From a virus (taxonomy: Duplodnaviria; Caudoviricetes), in IMG/VR virus record IMGVR_UViG_3300027996_000034, positions 1 through 60,501 of that record: DNA of 60,501 nucleotides, one strand, 5' to 3'. The first letter of the stretch is position 1. The number at the start of each line of letters is the position of its first letter. The position numbers and the translations under genes are program-made. Below are positions 24,382-49,118 of this stretch, in pieces. The notes beneath the pieces are model-generated. The model had not been told where the DNA came from. It made no database searches and saw only the letters and a program-made list of their open reading frames with translations.

Positions 24382-24854
24382 TTATTCTTTATATATTTAA
24401 GAAATGTTTTTCTATCTCTATTTATCAAACGTTTGCAATGGTCTGTGAATGCAACTGAATTATTAAGTACTAATTCGCTGACCTTTTTTCCATCATCAGT
24501 ATAAGCATCATAACAAGAATCACAACAAAAATTTGATATTTTAAAATCTTCCATACGTGATTTAATATCGGTTTTGCAATAAGAACATAACCATGGTATT
24601 ATTCTAATCTCATCTAAAAGTTTACGTTTATCTTTTATTTCACCATCAGTTGGATCAATGAAAAATTTGCTTTTATTTTTTTCATAGTTTTCTTTATCTA
24701 TTAACATAAATAAAGCTTTAACGAAAGTATCATCTTCATAATGCTTCTTTATAAGCGGATATCTTACTAATACTTCTACATGCTGTGGCTTCAATCCTTT
24801 TATTTTAATTCCACATCTAGTTAGACTACTAGGTTTGCCTCTATGAATTTCCAT
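24378..24854 (-). CDS. Hypothetical zinc-finger protein
   Basis: CSYC..FCCDSC. Confidence 0.65.
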   Translation of the reverse strand: MEIHRGKPSSLTRCGIKIKGLKPQHVEVLVRYPLIKKHYEDDTFVKALFMLIDKENYEKNKSKFFIDPTDGEIKDKRKLLDEIRIIPWLCSYCKTDIKSRMEDFKISNFCCDSCYDAYTDDGKKVSELVLNNSVAFTDHCKRLINRDRKTFLKYIKNK

Positions 24855-27402
24855 TTACTGCATTTATCCATTTATCCCTAAATGACATTGACTCTTCTAC
24901 CTTTTTATCCTTTTTATCCTTAATTTCTTTAAAGAAGTTTTTAGTTACATTAATAGTAGGATACATAGGATCTTTAGGTTTATCTAAAGTTATTTGATAA
25001 ACTTCTTCTTCGCCTTCTCGTCTAGGCATATCTCCTTCTGGCTCTCTTTCATTTTCTAAAAATGAATGCGTGATTTTTCCAGTAGCATTATTTAAGTGGC
25101 CAAGATCTTTATCCGACATGTTGCGTAATGATACTTTTTTATTCATAAGTGGATTATCTTTATTCTCATCCTCGCTTTTGTCCATTAACTCTTTAGCAAT
25201 GGTATCCTCATCTTTTGGAATATCAGCATCGTCATCAGATGGACATTCATCTTTACCATCGGCTTCTTCATCACCTTTGGCCTTTTCTTTATCCTCTTCA
25301 GAAACAAGTTCTTTTCGTTTATTAGATTCAACTAATACTGATCGATATTCAATTGATACTGATTCTCCGATTGTAGCAAGTTTTTCTTTTGCATCCTCTA
25401 ATTTTTTCTTTTCAGTCTCTAATTTATTCTTAGCTTCTTCCTTTTTAGGACCTTCTTCCGCGTTTTCAAAATCAGTTGTTGCCTTTTCAACCGATTTTTG
25501 CTGTAACTCAATCAATGCCTGTTGAGCCTCTTTTTTAGCTTCAAGGTCCTTTTTTGCAGCTTCAGTATCTTCAACGTTTTGAGCGGCTAATTTATCGGTA
25601 ACTCCAGTTTTCGCTTTTTCTTTTTCGGCATCCGTTGCATCTACTGCAGCTATTGCTGCAGCATGATTTTTATCTGCAGTTTTTCCAGCACCTTCAATTT
25701 TAGGAGTAATTGCCTTAGCTTTCTTTTCTTTTGCTGCAGCATTTTTAGCCAATCCTTTATCAACTTGTTGTTTATCGATCGCGGCTTTAGTCATTAATGC
25801 ATCTCGCTCTGCTTCTAATTCTTCTTTTTTATTAGCGCCTTTTATTTTTGCAGCATAACCGGCTTTTAATCCCATCGCCTTTCCTCCTAAAGAGGTGGCC
25901 TTACCATCTTTATCTATACCGCTAACTCGTTGAGCATCCTGTTCAGCAGCCTCTTGTTCTTTATCTAACTGTTCAATCTCTTTATCTAGATCAGCCTTTA
26001 TCTGTTTTCTTTTCTCTGAAGCTTTAGGATCCGGTACTGTTTTTGCTTCCTCTTCTTTAATATCCGTTCGAAGTGCTTCGATTTGATCATCAAATTCCTT
26101 AGCCTTAGCTTCAATAGCTTCAGGCGTAGTCAATTCAGCTCGCTCCTTTTTAAGTTCACGTGCCTCATCCTCCTTCTTTTCAATATCCTTTTTTATCTTT
26201 TCAACATCCTCTTTAGCTTTTTGAAGTTTTTTAGTTCCTTCATCATTCAATTGAGCCTTTTTATCAGTAAGTTTTTTCTTTTCTTTAGTCCAAGCTTCTT
26301 TCTTTTTTGGGTCTGTTTCTTTAGCATTTTTGTCAACACCTGCTTGGATTTGTTTATCTATAGCTTCAAGTTCTTTTTTTAATGCTTCTTCCTCTTCCTC
26401 TTGCTTAGTTTTTACTTTATCTTGTGCAACTTGCAAGTCACCTTCTTCTCCACCTTCTTCTCCACCTTCTTCTCCACCTTCTTCTCCAGCTGGTGGATCT
26501 GGTTCTGCTGGTGGATCGCCTCCTTCAGGTGTATCCGTTTCTCCATCTGCTGGTGGATCTGGTTCTCCACCTTCTCCGGCCTCTTTTACAGACTCTTCTG
26601 GTGGATCTGGTTCTGCTGGTGGATCGCCTCCTTCAGGTGTATCCGTTTCTCCATCTGCTGGTGGATCGCCTCCTTTAGGTGTATCCGTTTCTTCTTCTGG
26701 TGTTTCTTCAGGCTCTTTTGGTAATGGATGATTTTTTGGATCTAAATCATGTAATGTCTTTTTTAAATCGTATATTTCTTTATCCATATCTGCCATTGCA
26801 TTAGGACCAGTGGCCTTTTTCTTATCATCTTCAAGCTTTGCTATTTCAGCTTCCTTATCCTTTTTGAATTCCTCATATTCCTCTTTAGTGATTGTAGGAT
26901 TGAGATCGTTTTCTTCTTTATATGATTGAACATCCGCTTCAGTCTTGGCCAATTTAATATCTTTTACCGCCTCCCACGCTTTTCGAATTTTTTTCTTCTT
27001 AAATAAAAATGCAATATATGCACCAATTCCGACAGCTGCAATCCCTACACCAGCTGCAGTTGATTTAATTGCGGTAGATCCCATTTGACCAATATCATCA
27101 TCCCATCCTTCAGTAATAGATTCAAAGACTTCAAATCTTTCATGTATAATTAAATCAATATCAAGAGTTTCAAACCGATTTTCTTCAATTAAATCAGATT
27201 CAATTAATAAATGTTTAATAGTATCTAAAGATTCAAATAATCCTCCAGATCCATCACCAACCGATTGAAGTAATAAAAATTTAATGATATTTGCAAATTC
27301 ATCTTCATCTAATTGTTTCAAATCTTCTTTAGTAGCAAGCCGTCTAAGACCTATTACCGCCTCGTTTATCTTAGTAAAATCTTCTAGCGAAATTATGTTC
27401 AT
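24841..27402 (-). CDS. Large acidic coiled-coil protein with one TM segment and P/G/E repeats; putative internal head/ejection protein
   Basis: 853 aa; N-terminal ISLEDFTKINEA leader; late motif at 27425; adjacent to the MCP gene. Confidence 0.6.
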   Translation of the reverse strand: MNIISLEDFTKINEAVIGLRRLATKEDLKQLDEDEFANIIKFLLLQSVGDGSGGLFESLDTIKHLLIESDLIEENRFETLDIDLIIHERFEVFESITEGWDDDIGQMGSTAIKSTAAGVGIAAVGIGAYIAFLFKKKKIRKAWEAVKDIKLAKTEADVQSYKEENDLNPTITKEEYEEFKKDKEAEIAKLEDDKKKATGPNAMADMDKEIYDLKKTLHDLDPKNHPLPKEPEETPEEETDTPKGGDPPADGETDTPEGGDPPAEPDPPEESVKEAGEGGEPDPPADGETDTPEGGDPPAEPDPPAGEEGGEEGGEEGGEEGDLQVAQDKVKTKQEEEEEALKKELEAIDKQIQAGVDKNAKETDPKKKEAWTKEKKKLTDKKAQLNDEGTKKLQKAKEDVEKIKKDIEKKEDEARELKKERAELTTPEAIEAKAKEFDDQIEALRTDIKEEEAKTVPDPKASEKRKQIKADLDKEIEQLDKEQEAAEQDAQRVSGIDKDGKATSLGGKAMGLKAGYAAKIKGANKKEELEAERDALMTKAAIDKQQVDKGLAKNAAAKEKKAKAITPKIEGAGKTADKNHAAAIAAVDATDAEKEKAKTGVTDKLAAQNVEDTEAAKKDLEAKKEAQQALIELQQKSVEKATTDFENAEEGPKKEEAKNKLETEKKKLEDAKEKLATIGESVSIEYRSVLVESNKRKELVSEEDKEKAKGDEEADGKDECPSDDDADIPKDEDTIAKELMDKSEDENKDNPLMNKKVSLRNMSDKDLGHLNNATGKITHSFLENEREPEGDMPRREGEEEVYQITLDKPKDPMYPTINVTKNFFKEIKDKKDKKVEESMSFRDKWINAVNGNS
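26441..26667. repeat. Coding repeats: 12-nt x4 (GGEE) and 70-nt direct repeat (26490-26559 / 26598-26667)
   Basis: Read directly from the sequence; encodes DPPADGETDTPEGGDPPAEPDPP twice. Confidence 0.9.
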
Positions 27403-27494: not shown

Positions 27495-29201
27495 TTAAGC
27501 TAATTGACCAGCATCGTTTTGAACACCGAACGACATGTACATAGTTTGTGGATGGAATCCAGCCTCAACTAAAGCATATCTAGATTTAACAGCGATTTTT
27601 GGCGCCATTGTACCTTCAGCAATAGTTTGAACAGATTCAGCCATTAGATATGGCATAAACACTAGTCCAGGAGAGTTTCCGTCACCTTTTCTACCTACAG
27701 TGATTCGAGTATCACTCCAGCTCATATATGGATCAACATAAACAACCAATCCAGCTAAAGTACCGATAGGGTACAATGAACCAGTTTGTTGGTTTAATGT
27801 ATTCATCATTGGAGCAGGAACGAATCCAGCACAATCTTGTAGTCCAGAACCAACTTGTCCGTTTGTTACTACAAATGTAGCAGGTCCACGTCTTCCTCGG
27901 ATAGCAATCAAGTTTCCAACCGCAAGGATCTTAGACATGATTTTTCTCTGACGAGTATGTAAGTTCTCTGCAGCTGAGTTAGTCTCAGAAGAATTAACTT
28001 GTGGATTTTGATCAAATAGACCAGGTAAAGCATCCATTGGGAATACTGAATTTCCACCAGTTACCCAATCAGATCCTCTAGAATCTAGAGTTGTTAATTG
28101 TGTTTGAGTAGAATAAAGACCACCAGTGGTAGTTCCAAGTAACAAGTTAAATTGAACGTTTTGCGTTGCAACAACTTGACCATGGTTAGTATAACCTAGT
28201 TTTCTAATTCTTGAAAGAATGTTCTTATTAATAGATTGAGTTAACTCGTTAATAAGTACTGACTCAACTTGAGCAACAGCATCTATACCGAATTGTTTCA
28301 AATCTTGAACTTGTTCTCTAGTAACTGCTGCAGCAACTTGGAAAGTTTGTGCCTCAATTGACTTATTGAATAAGCTTAAGTTCATTACATTCTCTTGATT
28401 AGATTCACCTTCTAGTCTTGACATCGGTTCGTTAGTATCATAACGATTTGATGAGAATCCTTGAACGTGATCTTCTAGAGCTTTTACTAAAACTGGTAAA
28501 CCAGCTAAAGTTACAATACCAGTACCACCACTTGCCCAAGTAAATGTTGTTCCTGCAGTTAAACCAGCAGCAACAGTTTGAGTAGCGTTAGCCATAGTAT
28601 CAACTCTAATAATATCGAATGCATCGATTCTAGATTCACCAACGTACATACCAGTAATACCTGTAGAAGTAACAACTACTTCTCCAGCAGATGGTGCAGT
28701 TGTTATGGCCCCTCCTGCAGGATCTGGTGTAATAGTACCATTAGATTTGATTAATAGTGGCATGTCCGGAGAAGCACCTCTATTTTGTGGAACTGGAAGA
28801 GCTCCGGTTTGTCCGATTGAAGGAACAAGTCCTCCACCGTAAACGAAGTCTAAGTATGTCAACACACCCATCGGTCCGTTCATTGGTACTACAGGTACTA
28901 GATCTAAACCAACAGTCTGTGCAGCAACTTGCATAGCAAGCGGAAGAAGAGTGTAAGGTTTATCACCGGAACCAGTAGTTTGAGTACCAAATCCAGATTG
29001 CAATCCAGGATCACCTGGGAATCTAGTAGCACCCATACCATTAACAGAACCAACTGTTGCAAAAGCATTATTCTCATACAACTCGTGGTTATGACAGTAT
29101 TTAGACATCCATTCTAATTTTCCTTTGTCCTCAATACCAGTAGTGGACTCGATAATTGGAGACCATTTTCCGTATATTTCGGATTCATTAATTAAATTCA
29201 T
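27495..29201 (-). CDS. gp23: Major capsid protein
   Basis: KWSPIIE, DLVPVVPMNGPMG, QDLKQFGIDA..LINELTQSINK, RRGPATFVV, GLVFMPY, KSRYAL. Confidence 0.95.
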   Translation of the reverse strand: MNLINESEIYGKWSPIIESTTGIEDKGKLEWMSKYCHNHELYENNAFATVGSVNGMGATRFPGDPGLQSGFGTQTTGSGDKPYTLLPLAMQVAAQTVGLDLVPVVPMNGPMGVLTYLDFVYGGGLVPSIGQTGALPVPQNRGASPDMPLLIKSNGTITPDPAGGAITTAPSAGEVVVTSTGITGMYVGESRIDAFDIIRVDTMANATQTVAAGLTAGTTFTWASGGTGIVTLAGLPVLVKALEDHVQGFSSNRYDTNEPMSRLEGESNQENVMNLSLFNKSIEAQTFQVAAAVTREQVQDLKQFGIDAVAQVESVLINELTQSINKNILSRIRKLGYTNHGQVVATQNVQFNLLLGTTTGGLYSTQTQLTTLDSRGSDWVTGGNSVFPMDALPGLFDQNPQVNSSETNSAAENLHTRQRKIMSKILAVGNLIAIRGRRGPATFVVTNGQVGSGLQDCAGFVPAPMMNTLNQQTGSLYPIGTLAGLVVYVDPYMSWSDTRITVGRKGDGNSPGLVFMPYLMAESVQTIAEGTMAPKIAVKSRYALVEAGFHPQTMYMSFGVQNDAGQLA

Positions 29202-29230: not shown

Positions 29231-30991
29231 TTATTTATTAAAGCGTCTTTTAAGTTCTTCCGTAACTGTGTCCATGTAAGCAGATGAAGTTTCGTAGTTA
29301 GAAGAATCATCAGATTCTTTTACTACTACTGTTTCGTTTATTTGCTCAGACGGATTATAAGCCCTTAGCTCACGGGTTGACCAGAAATGATCGATCTTGT
29401 ACTGTGTATCAAGAGTTCTCACCGATGCTTGAGCAGTAATAGAAGATTTTTGTGATTCGTTTATAGAATCCCAAGAACTTTTATATTTGCTCGGCATATT
29501 TTTTAGCCAATCGATTTTTGCTTCAGGCTCAACAAATACTGATTCCCATATTGCAGATGCATCAGTTGAACCGAACCACTCATTATTCTCAAATGTTCTA
29601 ATAACTTTCGCCTTAGTCTCATCATCAAATGATTTGTATTCAGTTCTCCTATCTTCATTTACAAAATGTAAGAAGTGAGTATTTGCAGAAGTTTCGTCCA
29701 CCTTTTGCTTCTTAGCGGATTCAACCAACGCTGAAATTTTCTCGTTTAATTCATTTTTGAATGTATTAGTTTCTATAATTAATTCATCAGCAGTTTCTTT
29801 AACTGTTTCTGATTCATTAATTGTTTCTCCAACATTTTTGGATTTGAAATTTTCATTCATTGTTTTAGAAACATAATCTTGGTATTTACCTAGATTTTCT
29901 ACATTATCTTTAACATACTCGGTATAATTAGCAACGGCATCAACACCTTCCATAACGTAATTAGAATATTCAATTACTTTATCTGTTTGTTCGTTTACAT
30001 AATCTTGATATCCGAAACGAGTATTTACATTTTCAGATATATGTTTAGAGTACTCAATGTTTTGATCGGTTTTAAGACCTACATATTCTGCATAATCTTT
30101 TACCTTTCCTAAATTTTCTATAATATAATCATTATGTGAAATAAGGCTATCAACATTTTCTGATAGATTCTCTACATAATTTCCGATTTGATTTACTCGT
30201 TTTGCAATAGCTTCTGAGTATTTAACTAAATCTGTATTTGCGGAAGCTTCATTTACCTTTTCAACTTCAGATTTTAATGAGTCAAAATTCTCTTTAACGA
30301 TTTTTGAATATTCGTTAAAATCTTCGACTGAAATAAAATTGCTGTTAGAATTAGACTCAGCTTCATTTATTGTTTCTTTTGGTGTAGTATTATCCATTGC
30401 TATTAATTCTTTTTGAATATCTGTATTAGTTTCTTCTATATATCCATTGATCTCGAAAATTCCTAGATTATCATCATCAACAAATCCATACTGTTCATTA
30501 ACTCGGTTGAGTTCTGCGTTTTCAAAACCAGGATCTGCAACTAAATCGTATGTAAATAATTTTTTAATTTTAACGTGGCCATTTTCTTGAACCACACCAG
30601 CAGCTCTACTAGAAATGTGTATTGGAATGCCACCATCAACAAGTGCTTGAGCTTGTTTTCCTGCGGTAGTATCTAATAACCGGATTTTTCCTCTAACAAC
30701 CTTGTTAGCTTTGTCATATGTTATTTCCTCAATAACATGAGATACATTTTGTAGAGAAATGTCAAATTGTTTTGGGTGATCTAATTCACCAAGAAGCTTA
30801 CCGCTTTTGAGTTTTTCTTGAAGACCTTCAATATGAGGCATCAACTCTTTCTCATCGTATATACGATTGTTCTTATTTTTTTTACCTATCTCAGAAAATA
30901 TTCCTTCTAATACATACTTGTCAGCGCCGGTTCCATTGGCTTCAAGTATACTAGTGGATCTTTCTAAGACTAATAATTTTGCGTCATTCAT
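29231..30991 (-). CDS. gp21: Prohead protease fused to scaffold/core (gp21-gp22-like)
   Basis: LEGIF..KNKNNRIY, LGELDHP, ISSRAAG, TYDLVADPGF, then ~400 aa acidic coiled coil. Confidence 0.9.
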   Translation of the reverse strand: MNDAKLLVLERSTSILEANGTGADKYVLEGIFSEIGKKNKNNRIYDEKELMPHIEGLQEKLKSGKLLGELDHPKQFDISLQNVSHVIEEITYDKANKVVRGKIRLLDTTAGKQAQALVDGGIPIHISSRAAGVVQENGHVKIKKLFTYDLVADPGFENAELNRVNEQYGFVDDDNLGIFEINGYIEETNTDIQKELIAMDNTTPKETINEAESNSNSNFISVEDFNEYSKIVKENFDSLKSEVEKVNEASANTDLVKYSEAIAKRVNQIGNYVENLSENVDSLISHNDYIIENLGKVKDYAEYVGLKTDQNIEYSKHISENVNTRFGYQDYVNEQTDKVIEYSNYVMEGVDAVANYTEYVKDNVENLGKYQDYVSKTMNENFKSKNVGETINESETVKETADELIIETNTFKNELNEKISALVESAKKQKVDETSANTHFLHFVNEDRRTEYKSFDDETKAKVIRTFENNEWFGSTDASAIWESVFVEPEAKIDWLKNMPSKYKSSWDSINESQKSSITAQASVRTLDTQYKIDHFWSTRELRAYNPSEQINETVVVKESDDSSNYETSSAYMDTVTEELKRRFNK

Positions 30992-31047: not shown

Positions 31048-32628
31048 TTATTCTTCTTCTGATGCCATATCATCGAGTTTCTTTTGTTCACGTTCCTTGA
31101 GCGTTTGATTTGATTTTATATCAGCCTCACTTAAGTCCATGAATCGTCGAATTAACCATTCAGAAGAGAAATATTTGATTTCGTTACCTTCAGGATCGAA
31201 GTCTACAAGACCATCTTTCATTGCGGTTACAAAGTCTATTCGTTTTTGAAGAAGTTCCATTTCTTTCATTTCTTCAAATATATTGTATTTGTTAAATTTA
31301 ACCCCAATCTGTGCTTTAAATGAATCATCATTCATTAAGTCAGGATAATCTAGAGTCATTTGGATCCATAGAGGTTTTACGATTATTTCTTGGAATGTTG
31401 ATCTTAATCTATTTATAAATCTACCAAATTTGATTTCATCTCGAGTCATTCCTTCAGCATTGATTTCCCATGATGGTGGGTTTTCAACATCAAAACGATT
31501 CATTGGAATTTTAGATACTCGTCTAAGATTTTCTTTAAAGTAATTTAAAGAACTTGTATCAGAAAGATCAGGACCATCACCACCGATTGTTTCGATTTGT
31601 GGAGAACCTGCGTCACCTTCAGGTAACCAATACTCTTTATTGAAAGGCATCATCGGACGACCATTTGTTTTCAATTCACCGCTATCATAATCAAAATCTA
31701 CTTGTTCTCGATAGTTTTGCATTAAAACACCAAGTGATTGTTTTGCTCTAGTTTTTGATTTACCACCAATTGGTATAATAAATTTAGTTTTGAATGATGA
31801 ATTAACAACCGCCCATATAATTCTAGAATGTTCCATAATTCTAAGAAGGTTAAATGATCTTATAAGTCTTTCAACATAAGAAATTCTAGTTGGAGAATTC
31901 ATATTTGCATATGATATGTAAATAATTTGAGAATCATAAAGAGATCTTGCTTTTGCAGGTATATCTTTAAATTGTTTCCAAACTCGTTTACCTTGATCGT
32001 CTAATCCAGGTTCTAATGTAATTGGATCTAGCTCTTTAAACCCTATTACATTTCGTTGTTCATTATCATATATTATCTCAAATGCGAGATATCCATCAAC
32101 TAGCCATTTTCTAAAATATGACCATGCCGTTATATCATTATTAAAACCAAAATATTGGTAAATTCGTTTATAATTGATTGATATAGCTCCTCTGATTTCT
32201 TCGACCTTTTCTTCTGCTAAAAGATCATCATCAAAAAGTATAGGATCTGCGAAATAGTTTTTATCATCATATACAATAACTTCATCACAAAGAGTGTCTA
32301 ATATTTCTTCAATTTCATCTTGTACTGCAAATCTTCGAAGTTCCTCTCGTTTCTTTGGATATGATTTATCAAATACTGATATAGATTTCTTTAATGCTAT
32401 ATCTGATAAAGCTAAGTTAGCAAATAATGCATAATCATCGTAATCTCCTCCAACTAAACCTCTTGGGTCATAAGTCCATCCGAACTGATCTTCAACAATA
32501 CCGACTGCTTGTGAATTACGAAGAACCATATCATCGTATTTCATACCAAATGAACTTAATTGTTTAAGTGCATTTGAGGCAACGAAACCTCTTCCTGAAG
32601 TATCATTCCTTTCTACAAATCCTGCCAT
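31048..32628 (-). CDS. gp20: Portal protein
   Basis: FRKWLVDGYLAFEI, FNLLRIMEHSRIIW, KEYWLPE, VSKIPMNRF, TRDEIKFGRFINRLR. Confidence 0.95.
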   Translation of the reverse strand: MAGFVERNDTSGRGFVASNALKQLSSFGMKYDDMVLRNSQAVGIVEDQFGWTYDPRGLVGGDYDDYALFANLALSDIALKKSISVFDKSYPKKREELRRFAVQDEIEEILDTLCDEVIVYDDKNYFADPILFDDDLLAEEKVEEIRGAISINYKRIYQYFGFNNDITAWSYFRKWLVDGYLAFEIIYDNEQRNVIGFKELDPITLEPGLDDQGKRVWKQFKDIPAKARSLYDSQIIYISYANMNSPTRISYVERLIRSFNLLRIMEHSRIIWAVVNSSFKTKFIIPIGGKSKTRAKQSLGVLMQNYREQVDFDYDSGELKTNGRPMMPFNKEYWLPEGDAGSPQIETIGGDGPDLSDTSSLNYFKENLRRVSKIPMNRFDVENPPSWEINAEGMTRDEIKFGRFINRLRSTFQEIIVKPLWIQMTLDYPDLMNDDSFKAQIGVKFNKYNIFEEMKEMELLQKRIDFVTAMKDGLVDFDPEGNEIKYFSSEWLIRRFMDLSEADIKSNQTLKEREQKKLDDMASEEE

Positions 32629-34293: not shown

Positions 34294-35763
34294 TTATATT
34301 GTTACGTCTAGATATTTCTTCTGAACTTCAATTATTTCGTTTGTAGGTAAAATAATAGATATCATATCTTTTCCACCAGATTCAGTATATTGTCCTGCAT
34401 TAACTTGGACTTTAGTTCCTGGACGAAATCCATTCGTTTTCATTTTTAATTCTCCTGGAACATAATCAGCATCACTAGCTTCATGTACTGTTACATTTTT
34501 AGATTTGAACATTTTATTTAATCTACCTTGTTGTGCTTCTAATGCATCGTTTAAAACTTTCTTAGCTTCTTTAATAGCATCCATATCATCCATATTTAAC
34601 TCAGAAAGTTTATTGATCTCATCTTTGATGTAATCAATTCTTTCATAAATATCATGTTCTGCTTTTGCTTTATCTGCATTTATTTTAGCTTCACCTTCTA
34701 GTAAATCTTGTACACTATTAGTGATATCATAATCAACGAATTCTTGTACTAAATTAACAGCATCAGAAGCCGTTTCAGTTTTAATTAATGTATTTTCATT
34801 CATTGATGGATTGATCTTATTGATATAAAGATTATTTCCAGATTTCATGACGTTAACTTCAACACCTTCATAAACATTTGACTTAATCGTTTCAACGAAA
34901 TCTAATTCATAAATACTATCGATTTTGTTTAATGCATGTTCTAATACTTTAATCGTATCATATTGGCCATATCTAAATTTTCCATTAGACATTAATTTTG
35001 CAGCTAATTGAGATTCTTTAACTAATTCACCATCTACATAAATTTCAGTACCTTTATCATCTTCATTAATAACTAAGTCAATATTGCAATTGTTTTCAGA
35101 TAGTCTAAGACCTTCTGCAGTTGGAGTAAAGTTTTTTGCTAATTGAACAAGCTTAGCGAAACTTTCATCTATTTCATCTCGGTGTGCTAAACGAATTTCT
35201 TCGCTCTCATCCATTGCATAAACTCTATCAGAAACACAAAAAATAGTTTCACCATTTACATTTTCTAAAACTGGAGATACCGGTCTAGTACTAGTGAAAC
35301 GGTTATCTGTTGTTTTATTTGTACCTGAAATGTTTTCGCTTAATGCAACTAATTCTTTAATTCCTGGTACCCATGAATGTTTTTTGAGTGTAGAAATAAC
35401 AGCATTTTTTAGTTGAGATTCACTAAGATCTTTAATTTCTTCTAATGCATTTATTGCAGCGGAGAATGATTTTTGATCTTTTGATGTTCTAATAGCTTCT
35501 AATGTGTTTAGAACGGCAAATGATAATTCATTATCTTTTGCAAATTTATAAGCTTCATTGATAAACGATTCAACTGGAGCTAACCAATCGAATGCTTTCA
35601 TTTCATTGCAAACATCTCGGAGAATATGATAATCAGATTTAAGTCCAATTTCTCTCATATATTTCTCTAAAATTAATCTACTAGAACCATTATTATCTGT
35701 TAATGATTCGTATAGAGATTCTAATCTAGTTCGCAAATCAAGAGTTTCTAATACTTTTGACAT
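34294..35763 (-). CDS. Hypothetical protein, probably virion/prohead associated
   Basis: 489 aa, late motif at 35793, several (L/I/V)xE motifs. Confidence 0.65.
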   Translation of the reverse strand: MSKVLETLDLRTRLESLYESLTDNNGSSRLILEKYMREIGLKSDYHILRDVCNEMKAFDWLAPVESFINEAYKFAKDNELSFAVLNTLEAIRTSKDQKSFSAAINALEEIKDLSESQLKNAVISTLKKHSWVPGIKELVALSENISGTNKTTDNRFTSTRPVSPVLENVNGETIFCVSDRVYAMDESEEIRLAHRDEIDESFAKLVQLAKNFTPTAEGLRLSENNCNIDLVINEDDKGTEIYVDGELVKESQLAAKLMSNGKFRYGQYDTIKVLEHALNKIDSIYELDFVETIKSNVYEGVEVNVMKSGNNLYINKINPSMNENTLIKTETASDAVNLVQEFVDYDITNSVQDLLEGEAKINADKAKAEHDIYERIDYIKDEINKLSELNMDDMDAIKEAKKVLNDALEAQQGRLNKMFKSKNVTVHEASDADYVPGELKMKTNGFRPGTKVQVNAGQYTESGGKDMISIILPTNEIIEVQKKYLDVTI

Positions 35764-35792: not shown

Positions 35793-36578
35793 TTATATAT
35801 CTTTGATTTTCTTTTGAATAATATATTCGTTGTTGATATCACCAGCTCCACCGTTAGAAAATGCTTTAGCTTCGTTCTTAATTGTTCCGATAACATTATA
35901 ATTTTCGAACAAACCATCGTCAAGCATTCCATCAACTGCTTTTTTAACACCAGGCGATTCTTTATGATCCATATAATCGTCGAATATTATTAGGCCACCA
36001 GGATTAACTGTTGCTTCATAGTTTTTAAAGTCTCGCTCAACCATATGTTTTGCATGTGATCCATCTATAAAGAATACATCAGCACCACCTGCCTTTTCAA
36101 TTGCAGCACAAGATTCTTTAATGATTTTAGGGTTATCTGATAGTCCAACAAATTTTTCTAAGGTTTGACCTTCGCTGATATATTTTGCTGTGTTATTATC
36201 GAACATTTTTTCTTGACCGGATTTAGCTTTGAATGGATCGATAGAAATATGAGATTTACCTTTTTTATTTTGAAGCATTAAGCACATAGATCCTCCACAA
36301 AAACTTCCAATTTCAGCAAATGTTTTATAGTCTTCTCCGAGCATTTCTGATAATGGATATGTTATATGAAAGTGATGGTGAAACGTATTTCCTTCCATAT
36401 CTTCACTTATTGATTGAACCATTTCAGAAGATTTCTTATATGATGGATGTTTAAGAATATCAGATTCTGTAAACATTTTAGTAGAAGATTTACCTTCATT
36501 CAATCCCCATTGTTCTACATCAGGGAATTGTTTATCATGCATTTCATTAAGAAAGTCTTTAAATGATAGTAATTTCAT
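35793..36578 (-). CDS. Class I SAM-dependent methyltransferase (Methyltransf_24-like) with capsid-targeting-like leader
   Basis: FAEIGSFCGGS, ISIDPF, VFFIDGSH, VNPGGLIIFDDY; leader MKLLSFKDFLNE. Confidence 0.85.
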   Translation of the reverse strand: MKLLSFKDFLNEMHDKQFPDVEQWGLNEGKSSTKMFTESDILKHPSYKKSSEMVQSISEDMEGNTFHHHFHITYPLSEMLGEDYKTFAEIGSFCGGSMCLMLQNKKGKSHISIDPFKAKSGQEKMFDNNTAKYISEGQTLEKFVGLSDNPKIIKESCAAIEKAGGADVFFIDGSHAKHMVERDFKNYEATVNPGGLIIFDDYMDHKESPGVKKAVDGMLDDGLFENYNVIGTIKNEAKAFSNGGAGDINNEYIIQKKIKDI

Positions 36579-36587
36579 ATTTGTATA

Positions 36588-38864
36588 TTATTTGTTAAAT
36601 CTATATTTAAGACCTTCAGTTACTGCATCCATATACGCATTTGATGTTGATTCTTCTTGTGGCTCTTCTACTTGAATTTCATCACCAGTTTTTGTATCTG
36701 TAATATTTTCAGTATCTTCAACCTCTTCACCATCATCGTCGATTGTAACCTCTTTAGTTTCTTTAACTGATTCGTTTTTCATATCCGAATAAAATTCTTT
36801 GAACATCTTTTCAAGTCCATCAAATTTTGCTCCTTGATCTTTAACGAAATCTTTTGCTTTTGCAATAAAATCCTTTTCATCTTTGGCCTCTTTAGCAAGT
36901 AAATGAAGTTCACTCATTGCACCATCATTAACCATTCTAGTAAGATCTTCGTTAGTTGTTGATTCGTCTAGTAAAATTTTCTTTAATTTTGCAAGTTTCT
37001 TAGAATCCTTTTCTAGTTCTTTAGTTGCAGCTGCAATTTTGGAAGAAGCATCATCACCACCTTCAGTAGCATCTTCAGGAGATTCACCATCTTTTATTTT
37101 AGATTCTGGAGAATCTTCACCGTCTGGTGCTGAATCATCAGGTCCTTGAGTTTCATCCTCATCACCATCTGCAAGATCATCGATCATATCATCAATATCT
37201 TCTCCATCACCTTCTTCAACTTGTAAAGTTTTTTTGTTAAGTTTTTCATTAACACGTTTAGCATCTAAATAAAATTCATTATTCTCAAATGTACCAGTTC
37301 TTAAATACTTACTTAAATCTGTAAAGTAACCTAATTCCTCTGGTGTCAATTTAGATTTGATATATTTTGCAATTTCCGCCATTTCTTTTGTACGTAATTT
37401 AGAGGCTGCTCGATTTTTTGCATTTGAAGTTCCCATATACGGTGTTAATTCCGCATACATTTTTTTCAGAACATCATCATTTTCAAATTTCTTAACGATT
37501 GGTTCTAATATTGCTTTTTTATCAGCTAATTTATCAGCAGCTCTTTTAGCAGCTTTTTTAGCATCGGCCTTTTCGGCAGCATTTACTATTGCCTTTCCAG
37601 CAACGATTGCAGCAACCTGAGCACCGTTGACTAATGCAATAACACCGACAACACCTAATACAATTCCACCAGCTATTGTTAAAACACCAACGGCTTCATC
37701 AATATTTTCATCATCATTAACCACATCACTACCTTGTAGTCCTAAAAGAAATGCAGCAGTAGCATCTTCAAATGTTTTCTTTTTTGCTTCATTAACTGAT
37801 TCTCTAATTCCAAACTTAGCTAGAATTCGAATAGCAGGAACCGCATTATCTTGATCACCATCACCCATGATTACTAATTTACCATTAAGTGTTCCAAATT
37901 CGATCTTATTTATCGTTAGCTCCTTATATAACTTTTTATTTACCGGGTCTTTTATTTCGAATTCCCAATCATAATTATTTCCTTTATCTAGTTTTTTAAC
38001 TTCGAAACCTTCATTAACTTCATCGTCTTCGTTAATATCTTTTAGAAACTTAGTTGCATTTTCTTCAAATGTAAGTTTTGCTTTTTTAGCTTCATAAACT
38101 GCAGCTCCATCAGGATCATAAGAAAATACCGCAGTACCACCTCTTCCATCTAATGCGATTGCATCTTCATTTGGATCTAATTCTTCAGCAGCACCAGAAT
38201 CATCATATTCCGCTAGATCTTTAACTTTACCTATTGCAATAACATTCCAAGTATCACCATTGTAATCAGTAGCTTTATCACCGATTTTAACTTTCTTAAA
38301 AGGTTTGATTTTTTTACCTTCATTAATTGATTCTTCAGATTCATTTAGGAAGTAATAAACTTCAATCCCATAATCATCAACTCTTAATACGTTTAATTTT
38401 TTACTGTAAGTTATATTACCAGCAACTTCAGCAGATAATTTAGGAAGTTTCTTATGAACCATTTCCCAATCCGATCCTTTTTTGTATTTTTCATACTCAT
38501 CACCAGATTCACTATCAGTTGCTTTAACATCTTTTATATTTTTAACTTTAAAGAATTTAGCAATTTCCTTTTTAACCGCAGTAGGAAAACTTGATTCTTC
38601 AGCATTGTACACATCTTCATTAACTGATTCGTTAACTTTCTTTTCTATGGTTATAGTTTCTGCCATTTCTTGCATAACTTTATCTATTCTCCAAGGAACA
38701 ACACCGATAGATGTTAAATAAGTTCGTATAATAGATTCATTCTTTCCTTCACCAACAAGTTTCTGTACTAGCGGTTTTAAAGAACCTGGTCCATAAAAGT
38801 TATATTCGCCTTTAGTAACGAGATTTTCATTTACAAAATCTTCAAAGCTTTTTAATTTACTCAT
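36588..38864 (-). CDS. Modular putative internal-head polyprotein with ESVNE repeats and scaffold-like C-terminus
   Basis: Leader MSKLKSFEDFVNE; ESVNED/ESINEG/DEVNEG/ESVNEA; C-terminus 15/19 identical to the scaffold C-terminus. Confidence 0.7.
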   Translation of the reverse strand: MSKLKSFEDFVNENLVTKGEYNFYGPGSLKPLVQKLVGEGKNESIIRTYLTSIGVVPWRIDKVMQEMAETITIEKKVNESVNEDVYNAEESSFPTAVKKEIAKFFKVKNIKDVKATDSESGDEYEKYKKGSDWEMVHKKLPKLSAEVAGNITYSKKLNVLRVDDYGIEVYYFLNESEESINEGKKIKPFKKVKIGDKATDYNGDTWNVIAIGKVKDLAEYDDSGAAEELDPNEDAIALDGRGGTAVFSYDPDGAAVYEAKKAKLTFEENATKFLKDINEDDEVNEGFEVKKLDKGNNYDWEFEIKDPVNKKLYKELTINKIEFGTLNGKLVIMGDGDQDNAVPAIRILAKFGIRESVNEAKKKTFEDATAAFLLGLQGSDVVNDDENIDEAVGVLTIAGGIVLGVVGVIALVNGAQVAAIVAGKAIVNAAEKADAKKAAKRAADKLADKKAILEPIVKKFENDDVLKKMYAELTPYMGTSNAKNRAASKLRTKEMAEIAKYIKSKLTPEELGYFTDLSKYLRTGTFENNEFYLDAKRVNEKLNKKTLQVEEGDGEDIDDMIDDLADGDEDETQGPDDSAPDGEDSPESKIKDGESPEDATEGGDDASSKIAAATKELEKDSKKLAKLKKILLDESTTNEDLTRMVNDGAMSELHLLAKEAKDEKDFIAKAKDFVKDQGAKFDGLEKMFKEFYSDMKNESVKETKEVTIDDDGEEVEDTENITDTKTGDEIQVEEPQEESTSNAYMDAVTEGLKYRFNK

Positions 38865-38897
38865 GTTTATGTAGTTATTTTATTTATATATTTATCT

Positions 38898-39797
38898 TCA
38901 TTCATTTTGTGGTTTATCGGGATCTGGTGGAGGTAATGGATTACTGTATCCTGATGGATCGATAGGCCATGCTGCATCTTGTGCTCCTCTAGATCCAACC
39001 CATAGGCCACTGGCATTAGGATTGAATGGATCAGTAACCGGAGTGAACCCGCCAGTTTGTGCAATATTTGTAGAGCTGCGGAATGCCTCCATAACCGTTC
39101 CAGCAAACATTTCAGTGTTATTGGGCCCTGAAAAACCGTTATCTTCATTTTTAAATATAGGCATAAATGTCTGTACCTCGATAGTATAATTTATTTTCCA
39201 TTCCTTTTTATCACCAAACGAAAATTCAATCGGTCTTTCTTTTGCAAAATCTTCAGGTAATTGAGCAACTGCTGGAATTCTAGTACCATCAATATCTATT
39301 TGGAAAACATTATTCTTATAAAATATCTCTATGGTTCTTTGAATTCCTTTAAATACATCTAAACTAGAATCAACATATAAATCAACCGTAAAACTTAATT
39401 TCAGTGGTACCATAAATACCTCAGAATTAAATGTTTGCAAAGTGCCATCATCTTGAACTCTTTGATAAAATGCTCTTACAAATTTATTTGTTAATGATCC
39501 AGCATCGATTGAGATACCATCTAATTGTAAAATTGCTCTAGGTAATTGATTGTATACCGATTCTGCACTAGTTGAATTAGTTCCACCAGCCGAGACGGTA
39601 TTCATAAACATATCCATCAAAAATCTTTCATCTCCAGTTGTACTGAAGTAAAATGGAACTTGTACTTTTTGTTTTTCGGTTGGACTTATTTGTTGGTACC
39701 ACCACATCCTATTGTTAAGGGTAGCTAGCACACCAACAATTATATTACGTAAAACAACGTCATCTTTATTAAATTCTAAATCGTAGAGTTGGGACAT
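38898..39797 (-). CDS. Tail terminator / sheath stabilizer (gp15-like)
   Basis: LRNIIVG..VQVPFYF..ERFL..LPRAIL..VPLKLSFTVDLY pattern; late motif at 39816. Confidence 0.7.
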   Translation of the reverse strand: MSQLYDLEFNKDDVVLRNIIVGVLATLNNRMWWYQQISPTEKQKVQVPFYFSTTGDERFLMDMFMNTVSAGGTNSTSAESVYNQLPRAILQLDGISIDAGSLTNKFVRAFYQRVQDDGTLQTFNSEVFMVPLKLSFTVDLYVDSSLDVFKGIQRTIEIFYKNNVFQIDIDGTRIPAVAQLPEDFAKERPIEFSFGDKKEWKINYTIEVQTFMPIFKNEDNGFSGPNNTEMFAGTVMEAFRSSTNIAQTGGFTPVTDPFNPNASGLWVGSRGAQDAAWPIDPSGYSNPLPPPDPDKPQNE

Positions 39798-46179: not shown

Positions 46180-47310
46180 TTAGAATAACGATAATGTATA
46201 CGCTAAGCTTCGGTTTAATCTTGGCATTCCGGATGGAATAACAATTCTATTTAATGGTTCGAGTATAAACATTTCAAATTGTCGTTCAATATCTATTTTT
46301 GGTGCTAATTGATATGGATATTCTCCTGGCAAATAACCAAATACATCACAAAATTGATCATCTGCATAATACCAACGAATTTTATCGCTTGTTTTTACAA
46401 GGTCAAAATTATTTTTTTGTGGTGAATTATTGACTAAATAGTTATGATACGCACCAGCTCGAACATGTATTGGACATCCTTTAGCGAGTTCAAATTCGTT
46501 TGTATCATTTAATACAAATTTATTGTAATCTCCGATTCTTCGATTAGATGATATTTGTTCTATATCGGCTAATTTGAATTGAGTCTTAATATCTTTAAGT
46601 ACTTGAGTTAATTCAGCAACAACATCGTTATCTAATCTATCTTTTGAAAATAGAAATTTTACGATATCAGTTAGTTTATCTCGACAGAAAGCCGGGGTTG
46701 ATGATTGTATAATTTCTAAACCTTTAGTCGATATGTATGTAAGAGGATCATAAGTTTTACCATCCTTCCAAACAATATTTTGAACATATTTCTTTTTTGA
46801 AACCCATATTGCATTATTTGCTATCGTCTCAAGTTCAAAATCTAAGAAGTTTTCAGAATTATAAGAATTTGCATAATCAGAAAGTACTTTTTTAATATAG
46901 TCTGCTAATCGATGTTTGTTAATTTGTAAAATGAAGTCTGTTATTTCGCCATCCCATTTACAAGATTCCATAACCTCTTCGAATACGATATATCCTGAAT
47001 CCGTATCTGTATATTTCCATACATGTCGTTTGAGCGGCTTAACCTCACTTAATCCCATTGTTTTATGAAGTGCAAAATCTTTATGCCAAAATTCTTTGAA
47101 GTATTTTTCAACACAACGTTCAGTATATTTTATTGCATCTTGGCCTTGAAGAGTTACTGTTTCAGCGATTACTGTGCTTCTAAAATGGAACCAGTCATTT
47201 GCAAATGCTCCATAAATAGAATTAATGCACAACTTTATAGCTTCTTGTAAGTTGAAACATCTAAGGCTTTCCTTTTCTAGACTCTGTATTTTAAGTTCTT
47301 TTTCAGTCAT
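46180..47310 (-). CDS. gp43: Family B DNA polymerase, C-terminal subunit (fingers half, palm motif C, thumb)
   Basis: KLCINSIYG, TLQGQ, YTDTDS, KKKYV, KGLEIIQSSTP. Confidence 0.93.
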   Translation of the reverse strand: MTEKELKIQSLEKESLRCFNLQEAIKLCINSIYGAFANDWFHFRSTVIAETVTLQGQDAIKYTERCVEKYFKEFWHKDFALHKTMGLSEVKPLKRHVWKYTDTDSGYIVFEEVMESCKWDGEITDFILQINKHRLADYIKKVLSDYANSYNSENFLDFELETIANNAIWVSKKKYVQNIVWKDGKTYDPLTYISTKGLEIIQSSTPAFCRDKLTDIVKFLFSKDRLDNDVVAELTQVLKDIKTQFKLADIEQISSNRRIGDYNKFVLNDTNEFELAKGCPIHVRAGAYHNYLVNNSPQKNNFDLVKTSDKIRWYYADDQFCDVFGYLPGEYPYQLAPKIDIERQFEMFILEPLNRIVIPSGMPRLNRSLAYTLSLF

Positions 47311-47311
47311 A

Positions 47312-48052
47312 CTAAGCTTTGATTGCTAAATTTAATGCAATTTTAGTGCTTGAGTCAACTGAATCCATTACGAGTTTATTTTGACATACTGAAATTTCAT
47401 ATGATTCTTTATCAATTCTAGAAAAGAATGATTTGAAAAGGTTAATTTCTGGATGGTCTGATTCGCTAGAATCATCTACAACAATATCATATGTATCACC
47501 AGCAATATGAACACCTTTATTATCTGAATATATCTTGAACAATTCATTTTTATCTAATGTTATTAGATTATTTAGTTTTGTTAGTAATTCATTTGAAAGG
47601 TGGAAGTTAAAAACTTCACCATCGGTTCCGAATGCTGCATCTATTTGAACGTCAGACATTGTGGTAAACCCTAAAGAAACATCCGCACAATGCAAAGTTA
47701 TTTGTAATGATTGGTCATTAATAACCATTTTCTCTGCAAAAAACTCTCCGGCATCTTCATAATAATGTAGTTCTCCACATAATTGGTGAGGATCAAAATA
47801 CTTTAAGCAATCTATTAATTTCTGACCACCAAAAAATGATATTTTAATGTTAGGAATTTCCTTTTCATCGAATTCAAATACGGAGTCTGTTGGTATCTGA
47901 GTAACTTTCGCAACATCTTTAGATGGAATGAACGAGTTAGAATATAATCGATCTCCAGATAAGTTTAAATAAATAGCTGAATCCATTAACAGCAATTTCT
48001 TAACCATAGTTGATAATGGTCCTGGATGAATTTTTGAAATAGTTAAATGCAT
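47312..48052 (-). CDS. Probable sliding clamp (gp45-like)
   Basis: 246 aa acidic two-domain alpha/beta pattern, adjacent to the polymerase; no strong motif. Confidence 0.55.
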   Translation of the reverse strand: MHLTISKIHPGPLSTMVKKLLLMDSAIYLNLSGDRLYSNSFIPSKDVAKVTQIPTDSVFEFDEKEIPNIKISFFGGQKLIDCLKYFDPHQLCGELHYYEDAGEFFAEKMVINDQSLQITLHCADVSLGFTTMSDVQIDAAFGTDGEVFNFHLSNELLTKLNNLITLDKNELFKIYSDNKGVHIAGDTYDIVVDDSSESDHPEINLFKSFFSRIDKESYEISVCQNKLVMDSVDSSTKIALNLAIKA

Positions 48053-48098: not shown

Positions 48099-49118
48099 TT
48101 ATTCACTCTGAATTTTCAACGATGCTTTATGGATTGACTCATACATTGATTCAACCAATTCTTCAGTTAAGCCATGTTCTTTACCTTGTGCTATTCGACT
48201 TGTAAGGATTTGATTCCATCGATTCATCTGTAAAGGTAAGATGTTGTTATCTGATTTGTATGTTCCAATTTGTTTAGCAACTTGCATTCTTTCTGAAAGT
48301 GTACTTATCAATAATGAATCTAACTCATCGACTTTTCTTCTGTAGGGTGCAAGACCATCATCTTCAACTTCATGTTTTCCAAATTTTAATCCATCAACAA
48401 GGAATCTATATTGAGTTGGTGTTATTTGTTGTTCAGCATCAGTTATTGCATCTTCTGGATTTGAATGAACCTCAACCATCATACCATCAGCACCGAAATT
48501 TATTCCGCGTTGCGTGACGTGTTGAATTAACATTGGATTTCCAGCAATATGTGAAGGATCAATTAACATAGGAATGTTAGGCATCTTTCTTTTGAATGCA
48601 ACTGGAACGTGCCATCCAGGCATATTTCTATATTTTGTTTTTTCGAATGTTGAGAAACCTCTGTGAATTGCACCGATGTTTTTAACGCCTTTTGCCTGTA
48701 ACCTTTCAATTGCACCAATCCAAAGTGATAAGTCAGGATTCATTGGGTTCTTTACATAAATTGGAATGTCAGTACCTTCAAGTTCTTCAGCTATAGCTTG
48801 CATACTAAATGGATTTCCACTTGTTCTAGCACCAATCCATAACATATCAACTCCATGTCCAATAGCTAATTTTATATGAGCTGGTTCTGCAACTTCACAA
48901 CAGATTTTGAATCCGAATTTTTCTTTGACATCTTGAAGCCATTTTAAAGCATCTTCACCATGTCCTTCGAATGCACCTGGATTAGTTCTCGGTTTCCATA
49001 CTCCTGCTCGGAAATAATCTATTTTGATATTTTGTTTCGATAACCCAAGAGCAACTTTCATAAGTTGCTCTTTAGATTCAGCTGAACAAGGTCCAGCAAT
49101 ATGTGTGAATTCTGTCAT
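48099..49118 (-). CDS. Bifunctional DAHP synthase (I-beta) / chorismate mutase (AroQ-type, C-terminal)
   Basis: IAGPCSAES, RAGVWKPRT, WIGART, VKNP, IHRGF, DPSHIAG, MVEVH, DAEQQ; C-terminal RRKVDELD..LSERM..IGTYK..IHKAS. Confidence 0.93.
   Translation of the reverse strand: MTEFTHIAGPCSAESKEQLMKVALGLSKQNIKIDYFRAGVWKPRTNPGAFEGHGEDALKWLQDVKEKFGFKICCEVAEPAHIKLAIGHGVDMLWIGARTSGNPFSMQAIAEELEGTDIPIYVKNPMNPDLSLWIGAIERLQAKGVKNIGAIHRGFSTFEKTKYRNMPGWHVPVAFKRKMPNIPMLIDPSHIAGNPMLIQHVTQRGINFGADGMMVEVHSNPEDAITDAEQQITPTQYRFLVDGLKFGKHEVEDDGLAPYRRKVDELDSLLISTLSERMQVAKQIGTYKSDNNILPLQMNRWNQILTSRIAQGKEHGLTEELVESMYESIHKASLKIQSE

Follow-up and report, generated by a model that had tools for sequence, protein, structure and literature searches.

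The 60,501-nucleotide viral contig IMGVR_UViG_3300027996_000034 (IMG/VR; Duplodnaviria, Caudoviricetes), which was analysed over its whole length and is called the window below, has a G+C content of 32% and carries nearly all of its long open reading frames (ORFs) on the minus strand. It encodes the head and tail module of a T4-like myovirus, and among these virion genes lies ORF 36588-38864 (minus strand), whose product of 758 amino acids (aa; 84.1 kDa, isoelectric point (pI) 4.7) has no Pfam or PHROG family match at E ≤ 0.01. The protein is punctuated by a repeated E-S-[V/I]-N-E motif, and it is discussed here as a probable capsid-targeted polyprotein precursor.

The repeated motif and the modules it delimits

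Five copies or variants of the motif, ESVNED (aa 79-84, bp 38613-38630), ESINEG (aa 178-183, bp 38316-38333), DEVNEG (aa 281-286, bp 38007-38024), ESVNEA (aa 355-360, bp 37785-37802) and ESVKE (aa 698-702, bp 36759-36773), all on the minus strand like every feature of the ORF given below, sit where a first-pass annotation of the sequence had listed them. The motif-bounded blocks of 99, 103 and 74 aa, which it called dissimilar, show no mutual likeness (BLAST of module against module returned only a linker pair, E = 0.009), and the short linker that it took to be duplicated (aa 258-274 and aa 359-373) and the N-terminal KSFEDFVNE leader are both present.

This punctuation is non-random, and chance is excluded by several counts. 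S[VIL]NE occurs three times in the protein against a mean of 0.042 in shuffled versions and [VIL]NE nine times against 0.93, numbers that none of 5000 shuffles reached in either case. A de novo k-mer count over the proteome of the window's 53 ORFs (19,073 aa) found ESVNE and the overlapping SVNEG, and no others, as 5-mers occurring at least four times. ESVNE is present five times (0.025 expected) and is confined to ORFs 36588-38864 and 54247-56742; the 16-nt DNA core GAATCAGTTAATGAAG has eight matches with at most two mismatches (0.13 expected), all inside the same two ORFs. When the prohead protease gene (see below) and ORF 56745-57323 are added to these two, [VIL]NE totals 28 against 3.1 expected from their own composition, and in the remaining 49 window ORFs it totals 22 against 15.8. 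ORF 54247-56742 (minus strand), a putative sister polyprotein of 831 aa with a DUF3008 N-terminus, contains five S[VL]NEG sites and its own module of a site plus a hydrophobic helix; the first-pass annotation had proposed that the two ORFs share one grammar, and they do, down to identical codons at all five ESVNE copies. A segment of the sister protein (aa 261-302, window 55837-55962) mimics aa 39-80, near the N-terminus, of the major capsid protein encoded by ORF 27495-29201.

In the window, GAATCAGTTAATGAA encodes every one of the five copies of ESVNE, for which window codon usage predicts a probability of about 0.088 per copy. The window and related loci together contain 23 distinct [ED]S[VIL]NE sites, and the 18 listed use 12 different 15-mers with codon frequencies near background. 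The amino acid motif is thus kept across relatives with varied synonymous codons, which argues for selection at the protein level, and the copies within one genome are either recent or homogenised, which fits an extra role as microhomology for cassette exchange.

The AlphaFold2 (AF2) model of the full-length protein, built from a 30-sequence alignment, has a mean predicted local distance difference test score (pLDDT) of 51.5, and 419 of its 758 residues belong to segments that score below 50. Predicted folded islands occupy aa 28-71, 191-252, 297-354, 396-414, 431-526 and 648-698, and there is a terminal helix at aa 743-757. Candidate P1 positions (the residue after which a cut would be made) are 13, 79, 83, 175, 182, 258, 279, 285, 359, 390, 540, 634, 702 and 750, and 13 of these 14 lie in the segments with pLDDT below 50, the exception being 750 within the tail helix.

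Behind the leader, module M1 (aa 14-83, bp 38616-38825) is a helical island (pLDDT ∼75-79) that is always found in this position and ends in the tandem sites VNE79 and SVNE83. M2 (aa 84-182, 99 aa, bp 38319-38615) has low pLDDT and ends with LNE175 and SINE182, and M3 (aa 183-258, bp 38091-38318) is a small beta-rich domain (pLDDT 70-89) ending in a nearly invariant VYE258. Linker 1 (aa 259-285, bp 38010-38090; AKKAKLTFEENATKFLKDINE/DDEVNE/, where slashes mark candidate cuts) is recurring and site-flanked, and is followed by M4 (aa 286-359, bp 37788-38009), an alpha/beta island (pLDDT 63-81) ending in ESVNE359, and by linker 2 (aa 360-390, bp 37695-37787; AKKKTFEDATAAFL...NIDE/). Of 33 homologs, 27 contain one or two copies of a linker of the form TFE[ED]xAxxF. 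Next come the hydrophobic-helix cassette described below and an acidic low-complexity stretch (aa 541-600, bp 37065-37244; pI 4.1), which is the best-conserved part in close orthologs (over aa 546-600, 91-100% identity in P0002-P0010 and 67-83% in more distant homologs). The last module, M5e (aa 601-702, bp 36759-37064), is a helical island with pLDDT 80-92 over aa 648-698 and ends in a nearly invariant ESVKE702. Foldseek comparison of the full-length model with PDB and BFVD gave no match at E ≤ 0.001, and the model is unfit for naming folds; in Atlas, M3 resembled small beta-barrels (CarD/Tudor/YajC-like and SH3/Tudor-like; template modeling (TM) score 0.5-0.58) and M1 resembled RecX-type three-helix units (TM score 0.64-0.70), both of them weak leads below threshold.

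The cassette (aa 391-540, bp 37245-37694; 16.2 kDa, pI 9.5) ends in VNE540 and has a distinctive order: IDE390 is followed immediately by a 31-aa uncharged helix rich in Gly, Ala, Val and Ile (the best 19-aa Kyte-Doolittle window averages 2.7), then by a Lys/Ala-rich helix and a conserved helical domain. Among 61 representative clusters that carry the cassette from its start, 54 have a [V/L/I/M]-x-E within 6 aa of the hydrophobic run and 52 have it within 1 aa; at this junction P3 is V in 21, L in 20 and I in 8 (49/54), P2 is N in 39/54, and the P1 Glu column of the cassette alignment (A2) is at least 90% conserved. The cassette begins by residue 45 in 21 of the clusters and deeper, up to residue 600, in the other 40, and its stand-alone forms end shortly past a conserved ..MLRTGD motif. 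The AF2 model of the cassette is all-helical (pLDDT 74.5, predicted TM score 0.64); the best VIA match to a solved fold has Z = 5.4 (root-mean-square deviation 4.8, 82 aligned residues), which is below the helical noise level, and Foldseek gave no match at E ≤ 0.001, so no fold can be named. The family as a whole (68 representative clusters) has no Pfam, PHROG or fold match. The same design of site, hydrophobic helix and Lys-rich helix is present in unrelated sequences, namely ORF 54247-56742, ORF 24841-27402 and an insert in the homolog P0003. That three sequence-unrelated head proteins share this design can be read as selection for a helix that becomes N-terminal after the cut, and we infer from the sequence that the cassette would insert into a host membrane.

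Leader, tail and prohead protease

The leader (aa 1-13, bp 38826-38864; MSKLKSFEDFVNE/N) is conserved in 27 of the 33 homologs. T4 internal proteins IPIII and IPII both start MKTYQEFIAE/A (as read from the T4 record), and aa 5-13 of the ORF product (K-S-F-E-D-F-V-N-E) align with their aa 2-10 (K-T-Y-Q-E-F-I-A-E) with three identical and five conservative positions, so that the aromatics at T4 positions 4 and 7 and an [I/V]-x-E at positions 8-10 are retained. A portion of one report on the T4 capsid targeting sequence (CTS) assigns positions 4 and 7 to targeting and 8 and 10 to processing, and there an Asp at position 10 of the T4 sequence stops processing but leaves targeting intact (PMC9026906). 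In a scan of 852 ORFs in the window and loci L001-L036 and L038, 27 distinct ORFs carried the leader, compared with none in a reversed-sequence control, and proteins otherwise unrelated to one another are headed by it. By pattern matching, 41 of the 146 representative clusters described below have a T4-like leader, 26 have a leader of a second type with [I/V]-[R/K]-E at its end, and the other 79 are of other kinds or fragments.

Three more window ORFs have similar leaders: 35793-36578, 24841-27402 and 59048-59521. The first of these (minus strand, 261 aa, leader MKLLSFKDFLNE/) is adjacent to ORF 36588-38864 and encodes a class I S-adenosylmethionine-dependent methyltransferase (PF13578, E = 8.7e-15) that is probably packaged in the head. 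ORF 24841-27402 (minus strand, 853 aa, leader MNIISLEDFTKINE/) lies just downstream of the capsid gene and has no Pfam or PHROG family match; its ITE98 is followed about 12 aa on by a hydrophobic helix and then by a long Lys/Glu/Pro-rich low-complexity region with DPPA repeats.

The prohead protease gene, ORF 29231-30991 (minus strand, 586 aa), lies 5.6 kb from ORF 36588-38864 and encodes the presumed processing enzyme, a gp21-like domain with a long C-terminal extension (PF03420, 9e-11; PF20034, 1.8e-5; phrog_207, 2e-38). The protease domain at its N-terminus (about aa 1-200) shares 30% identity with T4 gp21 (E = 2e-9), and T4 H85 and S140, presumably the catalytic residues of gp21, have a His and a Ser as their counterparts in the alignment. 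The extension contains nine [VIL]NE sites and has no significant similarity to T4 gp22 (best E = 0.028). As described in parts of three reports, the prohead proteases of T4, phiKZ, 201phi2-1 and SPN3US cut on the C-terminal side of Glu with a short motif before it, propeptides may contain several such sites, and the protease's own C-terminus, which is thought to direct the enzyme to the prohead, is removed (PMC5694885; PMC9026906; PMC10052503). Judged from sequence, [V/I/L]-N-E with G, A, S or D after it fits the hydrophobic-x-Glu specificity of T4 gp21-type prohead proteases.

The C-terminal tail of ORF 36588-38864 (aa 741-758, bp 36591-36644; ..SNAYMDAVTEGLKYRFNK) is a copy of the tail of this protease: the last 19 residues of the two proteins are identical at 15 positions (E = 4.8e-4 in a small database). 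The protease tail is kept in all 18 complete protease ORFs of relatives and in the uncultured phage LR756500 and hardly varies among relatives, and T4 gp21 ends in ..DDAYMALAEAMKKAL, with a similar AYM..A.E.MKK motif. A family scan of 30 homologs of the ORF found DUF3175 (PF11373) in seven (best E = 1.4e-8), UPF0227 in one and a marginal CH match in one; DUF3175 could be one more cargo, or a module that provides targeting in another way. For the complex predicted between the major capsid protein and aa 709-758 the score was 0.47 (best control 0.00), a mark that 51 of the 78 solved complexes and two of the 108 mismatched pairs attained; scores up to 0.60 were reached by 5 of the 78 solved complexes yet by all four passing mismatches (of 180), and this weak result, in which the runs share at least 67% of contacts and the partner has pLDDT of at least 51, is not relied on here.

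Module exchange among relatives and the surrounding genome

Modular variation among orthologs was set beforehand as a test of the first-pass annotation's idea of a cargo array, and it proved strong: the leader and M1 are kept, and the other modules are gained, lost and moved. Modules were mapped by reference (motif-cut single-linkage clustering was dropped, as it merged nearly everything into one family) in 33 homologs from a word-indexed search, 27 of which bear the leader. Leader plus M1 is present in 28 of the 33 (the leader alone is matched in 27), M3 in 29, where it lies anywhere between about residues 20 and 380, M4 in seven, and M2 in none of the 33 near-length homologs. The cassette with its helical domain (aa 393-545) is found in none of the 27 leader-bearing homologs; it occurs in P0002, P0030, P0031, P0033 and P0034, the last four being cassette-bearing proteins with other N-termini. 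In the N- and C-terminal parts that it shares with ORF 36588-38864, P0003 is ∼90-95% identical to it; a different hydrophobic module stands in place of M2, and there is no cassette at aa 391-540. The ends of internal BLAST alignments mark homology breakpoints, of which 26 of 60 lie within 6 aa of a candidate site; only 17% of the protein is that near a site, and none of 10,000 random placements matched this number. Because the sequences compared are related, the breakpoints do not count as independent events. A further breakpoint cluster (aa 524-541) adjoins VNE540 and is outside the site pattern used. The repeated site is also the joint at which cassettes differ between relatives, and its copies within the genome have identical codons. 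The gene thus acts as an array of exchangeable modules on a constant handle, the leader plus M1.

An exhaustive search of 1.84 billion representatives gave 146 clusters at E ≤ 0.001, of which 83 are at ≤ 1e-10 and 14 at ≤ 1e-30. After local reclassification, 137 of the 146 clusters cover one module or more by at least 60%, and single-module matches dominate. The cassette is found in 68 clusters, M3 in 31, leader plus M1 in 29, the acidic stretch in 13, M4 in eight, the tail in seven, M5e in six and M2 in five; the cassette is the only module in 56 clusters, M3 in 20 and leader plus M1 in 19.

Modules also cross between the polyprotein genes, so that the check suggested by the first-pass annotation has a positive outcome. 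P0062 joins the DUF3008 N-terminus of the 54247-56742 protein to the hydrophobic cassette of ORF 36588-38864, and P0059, P0050 and P0152 have M3 joined to the N-module of ORF 56745-57323. P0066 consists of leader, M1, linker, acidic stretch and M5e fused to a methyltransferase, which M5e directly abuts and which is 67.5% identical to aa 22-258 of the window methyltransferase (35793-36578). P0135 combines leader and M3 with the C-terminus of ORF 34294-35763. In the distant relatives L030, L031 and L036, whose proteases are 47-60% identical to that of the window, six or seven small separate leader-bearing ORFs lie upstream of the head genes. These include a 255-256-aa ORF with leader plus M1, and the cassette is a leader-bearing gene of its own, 276 aa long, in L030 (5275-6105) and L036 (5811-6641; E ∼ 1e-10). 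ORF 34294-35763 (minus strand, 489 aa) contains 13 hydrophobic-x-Glu candidate sites and may be another core or cargo protein; its C-terminal 64 aa are a stand-alone 74-aa leader-bearing gene in the same three relatives.

The genes around ORF 36588-38864 are those of a T4-like myovirus and include the tail sheath, the large terminase, the major capsid protein (27495-29201, minus strand), the portal (31048-32628), a head completion protein, a gp2-like DNA end protector, a gp55-like late sigma factor and gp46/gp47-like nuclease subunits. A gp15-like gene (38898-39797) lies directly upstream of the ORF. The octamer TATAAATA, which we take to be the T4 late-promoter consensus, lies 17-24 nt upstream of its ATG (bp 38881-38888, minus strand) as a consensus match only; the window has seven copies (∼14 expected), another of which is 13 nt upstream of the leader-bearing ORF 24841-27402. 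Within bp 38865-38897 there is no Shine-Dalgarno-like purine run ahead of the ATG (..aaataactacataaacATG). Of the named relatives, the nearest are LR756500, an uncultured phage of 462 kb (capsid protein 49.7% and protease 38.1% identical), in which an ortholog of the ORF was not found at the syntenic position, and the Lak phages (capsid protein ∼34%), whose records name Prevotella as host.

The capsid protein N-terminus (aa 1-42), MNLINE/SEIYGKW.., is conserved in LR756500 (MIKLINE/AEIMRTW..), and its maturation cut is likely at LYE42, which would remove a short propeptide of ∼42 aa. ORF 57352-59046 (minus strand, 564 aa) has a C-terminal cytidylyltransferase/nicotinamide mononucleotide adenylyltransferase-like domain (PF01467, phrog_3041) preceded by ..SNLYE/GK, which resembles this likely maturation site. 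A family B DNA polymerase is split between two minus-strand ORFs about 4.8 kb apart, 46180-47310 (exonuclease plus polymerase positions 16-137) and 52127-53509 (polymerase positions 136-356). Between the halves lie a class II ribonucleotide reductase-like gene, ORFs 47312-48052 and 49118-50179, and a fusion gene (48099-49118, minus strand) of 3-deoxy-D-arabino-heptulosonate 7-phosphate synthase (1.6e-39) and type II chorismate mutase (1.2e-19), which may be an auxiliary gene for aromatic amino acid synthesis.

Processing, packaging and known systems

It seems likely that ORF 36588-38864 encodes a capsid-targeted, protease-processed multi-cargo polyprotein precursor of the phage head interior. 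The gene would probably be transcribed late, from the T4-like TATAAATA promoter, and the 84-kDa precursor would enter the assembling prohead by means of two signals, the CTS-equivalent leader and the tail copied from the prohead protease. Once the shell has closed, the gp21-type serine protease (29231-30991) would cut after Glu at about 12 [V/I/L]-N-E sites in predicted disordered linkers, and the variant sites V-Y-E, I-D-E and V-K-E may be cut too. About six domain-sized products would result, namely M1 (7.9 kDa), M2 (11.4), M3 (8.1), M4 (8.4), the hydrophobic cassette (16.2) and M5e (11.4), and short acidic linker peptides, the leader and the tail would also be freed. By analogy with the T4 internal proteins and Alt, the domain-sized products would remain with the DNA inside the head and pass into the host at infection, and the small peptides would leave. 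A cut at IDE390 would make the 31-aa hydrophobic helix the new N-terminus of the cassette, which suggests a membrane-inserting product armed by cleavage.

Several points weigh against this interpretation, besides the dependence among breakpoints mentioned above. We infer, rather than observe directly, the cleavage, packaging and ejection of the products. In its large size and its acidity (pI 4.7) the protein differs from the small T4 internal proteins; Foldseek and VIA gave nothing above noise and no module with a recognised function; and the low pLDDT of M2 reflects the lack of an aligned sequence covering that region and is not demonstrated disorder. The identity of codons at the five ESVNE copies could mean a role at the DNA level instead of the protein level. 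Neither the whole protein nor the cassette had a tblastn match among 50,697 phage records, so there is no cultured relative there. The sister protein 54247-56742 and the P0030-type proteins have no N-terminal leader, and another entry route must exist for them; many orthologs (loci L016-L027; P0018, P0026 and others) have a DUF3175-type C-terminus and not the protease-like tail, which cannot therefore be a universal requirement.

A scaffold or core component like T4 gp22, gp67 and gp68 would also be cut at many places, but it would build the prohead, be chopped and be expelled, with nothing delivered to the host. The number of protease-type sites, the acidic stretches, the long helices and a tail of the protease-scaffold-fusion type would all suit such a protein, and excerpts of two reports describe how the head is cleared by multiple cuts in core proteins and long propeptides (PMC9958956; PMC10052503). 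In ORF 36588-38864, however, the sites are between, not within, the predicted compact domains of 8-16 kDa, and module content varies even among relatives that are about 90% identical in the shared parts (P0003), which would be hard for a geometric scaffold. Whereas a gp22-like protein should have a conserved architecture, module order is not conserved among these relatives; modules also occur as separate leader-bearing genes, like the T4 internal proteins, and in one relative (P0066) an enzyme, the methyltransferase, lies within the same architecture. A scaffold role thus appears unlikely.

It is also conceivable that the motif is a joint at the DNA level (microhomology of GAATCAGTTAATGAAG) or a flexible linker, and that the protein stays at full length, for example as a membrane-anchored multidomain protein. 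The single 15-nt sequence shared by all five ESVNE copies of the window, the gathering of homology breakpoints at the motif and the transmembrane-like helix are as this would predict, but varied synonymous codons encode the same amino acids in relatives, the invariant residue is Glu, which gp21-type proteases require at P1, the motif forms the processing half of the leader, which itself matches the T4 CTS, and the phage's own protease has nine copies of the motif; we regard an unprocessed protein as highly improbable. Nor does it seem at all probable that the prohead core, as it assembles, is tethered to the host inner membrane by the hydrophobic helix until cleavage frees the prohead, which would make the protein an assembly factor and not cargo. 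T4 and SPN3US proheads do assemble on the inner membrane, and release in SPN3US needs protease action, according to parts of two accounts (PMC9958956; PMC10052503), and three leader- or site-bearing head proteins of the window carry such helices (36588-38864, 54247-56742 and 24841-27402). The cassette, however, is absent from all 27 leader-bearing orthologs and so cannot be essential to assembly, and the conserved cut at the N-terminal end of the helix would leave the helix on the downstream domain, so that the anchor would not be removed.

Within the favoured reading of the ORF as a multi-cargo precursor, a broader proposal can be made, although we think it rather doubtful: this lineage may have turned the T4 targeting and protease system into a multi-cargo array, in which leader plus M1 pull exchangeable effector cassettes into the head and the cassettes are freed in equimolar amounts and injected, the widespread cassette being a cleavage-armed device whose hydrophobic N-terminus, made within the capsid, acts on the host cytoplasmic membrane at genome entry. 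T4-type capsids are already a protein-delivery platform, as part of one account sets out (PMC9026906), and the polyprotein, should the favoured reading hold, would be a natural design for loading several proteins into them. It would also show phages diversifying their injected content with the assembly machinery unchanged, and its grammar of leader, [V/I/L]-N-E joints and protease tail could be used for spotting injected proteins in uncultured phages, among them the packaged methyltransferase and the unannotated hydrophobic cassette family of 68 representative clusters.

In the textbook account of T4, capsid targeting sequences and gp21-type processing serve one cargo per leader. These and the other parts of the proposed system are known, including removal of the protease C-terminus, multi-cut propeptides (SPN3US, phiKZ) and polyvalent proteins, the last as presented in portions of PMC5512222. 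The combination in which a leader and a protease-type tail bracket about six unrelated domains, with explicit sites as the cassette joints, is not described in the literature searched, where the passages returned by full-text searches held no account of a head-cargo polyprotein of this type and came closest with the SPN3US/phiKZ propeptides and the polyvalent proteins.

Like T4 IPI, IPII, IPIII and Alt, the ORF 36588-38864 protein starts with a leader of 10-13 aa, which follows their residue pattern, and has a gp21-type protease encoded nearby; like T4 CTS cargo in general, it shares one leader with otherwise unrelated proteins. In having a tail as well as a leader it recalls Alt, which, in the part of the source that treats it, loses both termini (PMC9026906). 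Thus a leader of ∼10 aa with aromatics at CTS positions 4 and 7 and [I/L/V]-x-E at 8-10 is present, and the same phage encodes a gp21-family prohead protease, but the protein is not a single small product, being 758 aa long with about six domains and internal sites between them, and it is better regarded as a variant of CTS cargo than as a plain member. T4 CTS cargo proteins are single products with one N-terminal cut (two in Alt), whereas here about six unrelated domains follow one leader and are separated by internal sites; in addition, the protein ends in the protease's own tail and is acidic, not basic. The inner-body and ejection proteins of phiKZ, 201phi2-1 and SPN3US similarly undergo several cuts after Glu in a short motif by a gp21-related protease, as far as the sections at hand describe them (PMC10052503; PMC5694885; PMC9026906). 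In those phages, however, the cuts fall within a long N-terminal propeptide that is discarded to leave one mature product, and the motif is A/S/G-x-E, whereas in ORF 36588-38864 the predicted cuts would separate folded domains and the motif is [V/I/L]-N-E.

Animal-virus entry proteins have N-terminal hydrophobic peptides that are armed by cleavage, and the cassette (aa 391-540) is like them in that a maturation cut right before a Gly/Ala-rich hydrophobic helix would create a new N-terminus. This is a likeness of design only, without homology, in a tailed phage that has no envelope, and the membrane activity of the cassette is a prediction. In domain organisation there is a parallel with the polyvalent proteins, which, in the portions of Iyer et al. 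2017 that describe them (PMC5512222), have many unrelated domains, virion-gene neighbours, predicted packaging and delivery with the DNA, and mosaic relatives. ORF 36588-38864 likewise has unrelated domains in one polypeptide beside virion genes, and mosaic relatives, but Pfam and PHROG searches of it found no recognised effector, peptidase or MuF-type domain. Polyvalent proteins contain known effector domains and any processing of them is ascribed there to their own peptidase domains, whereas ORF 36588-38864 would depend on the morphogenetic protease of the phage and on a repeated cleavage grammar.

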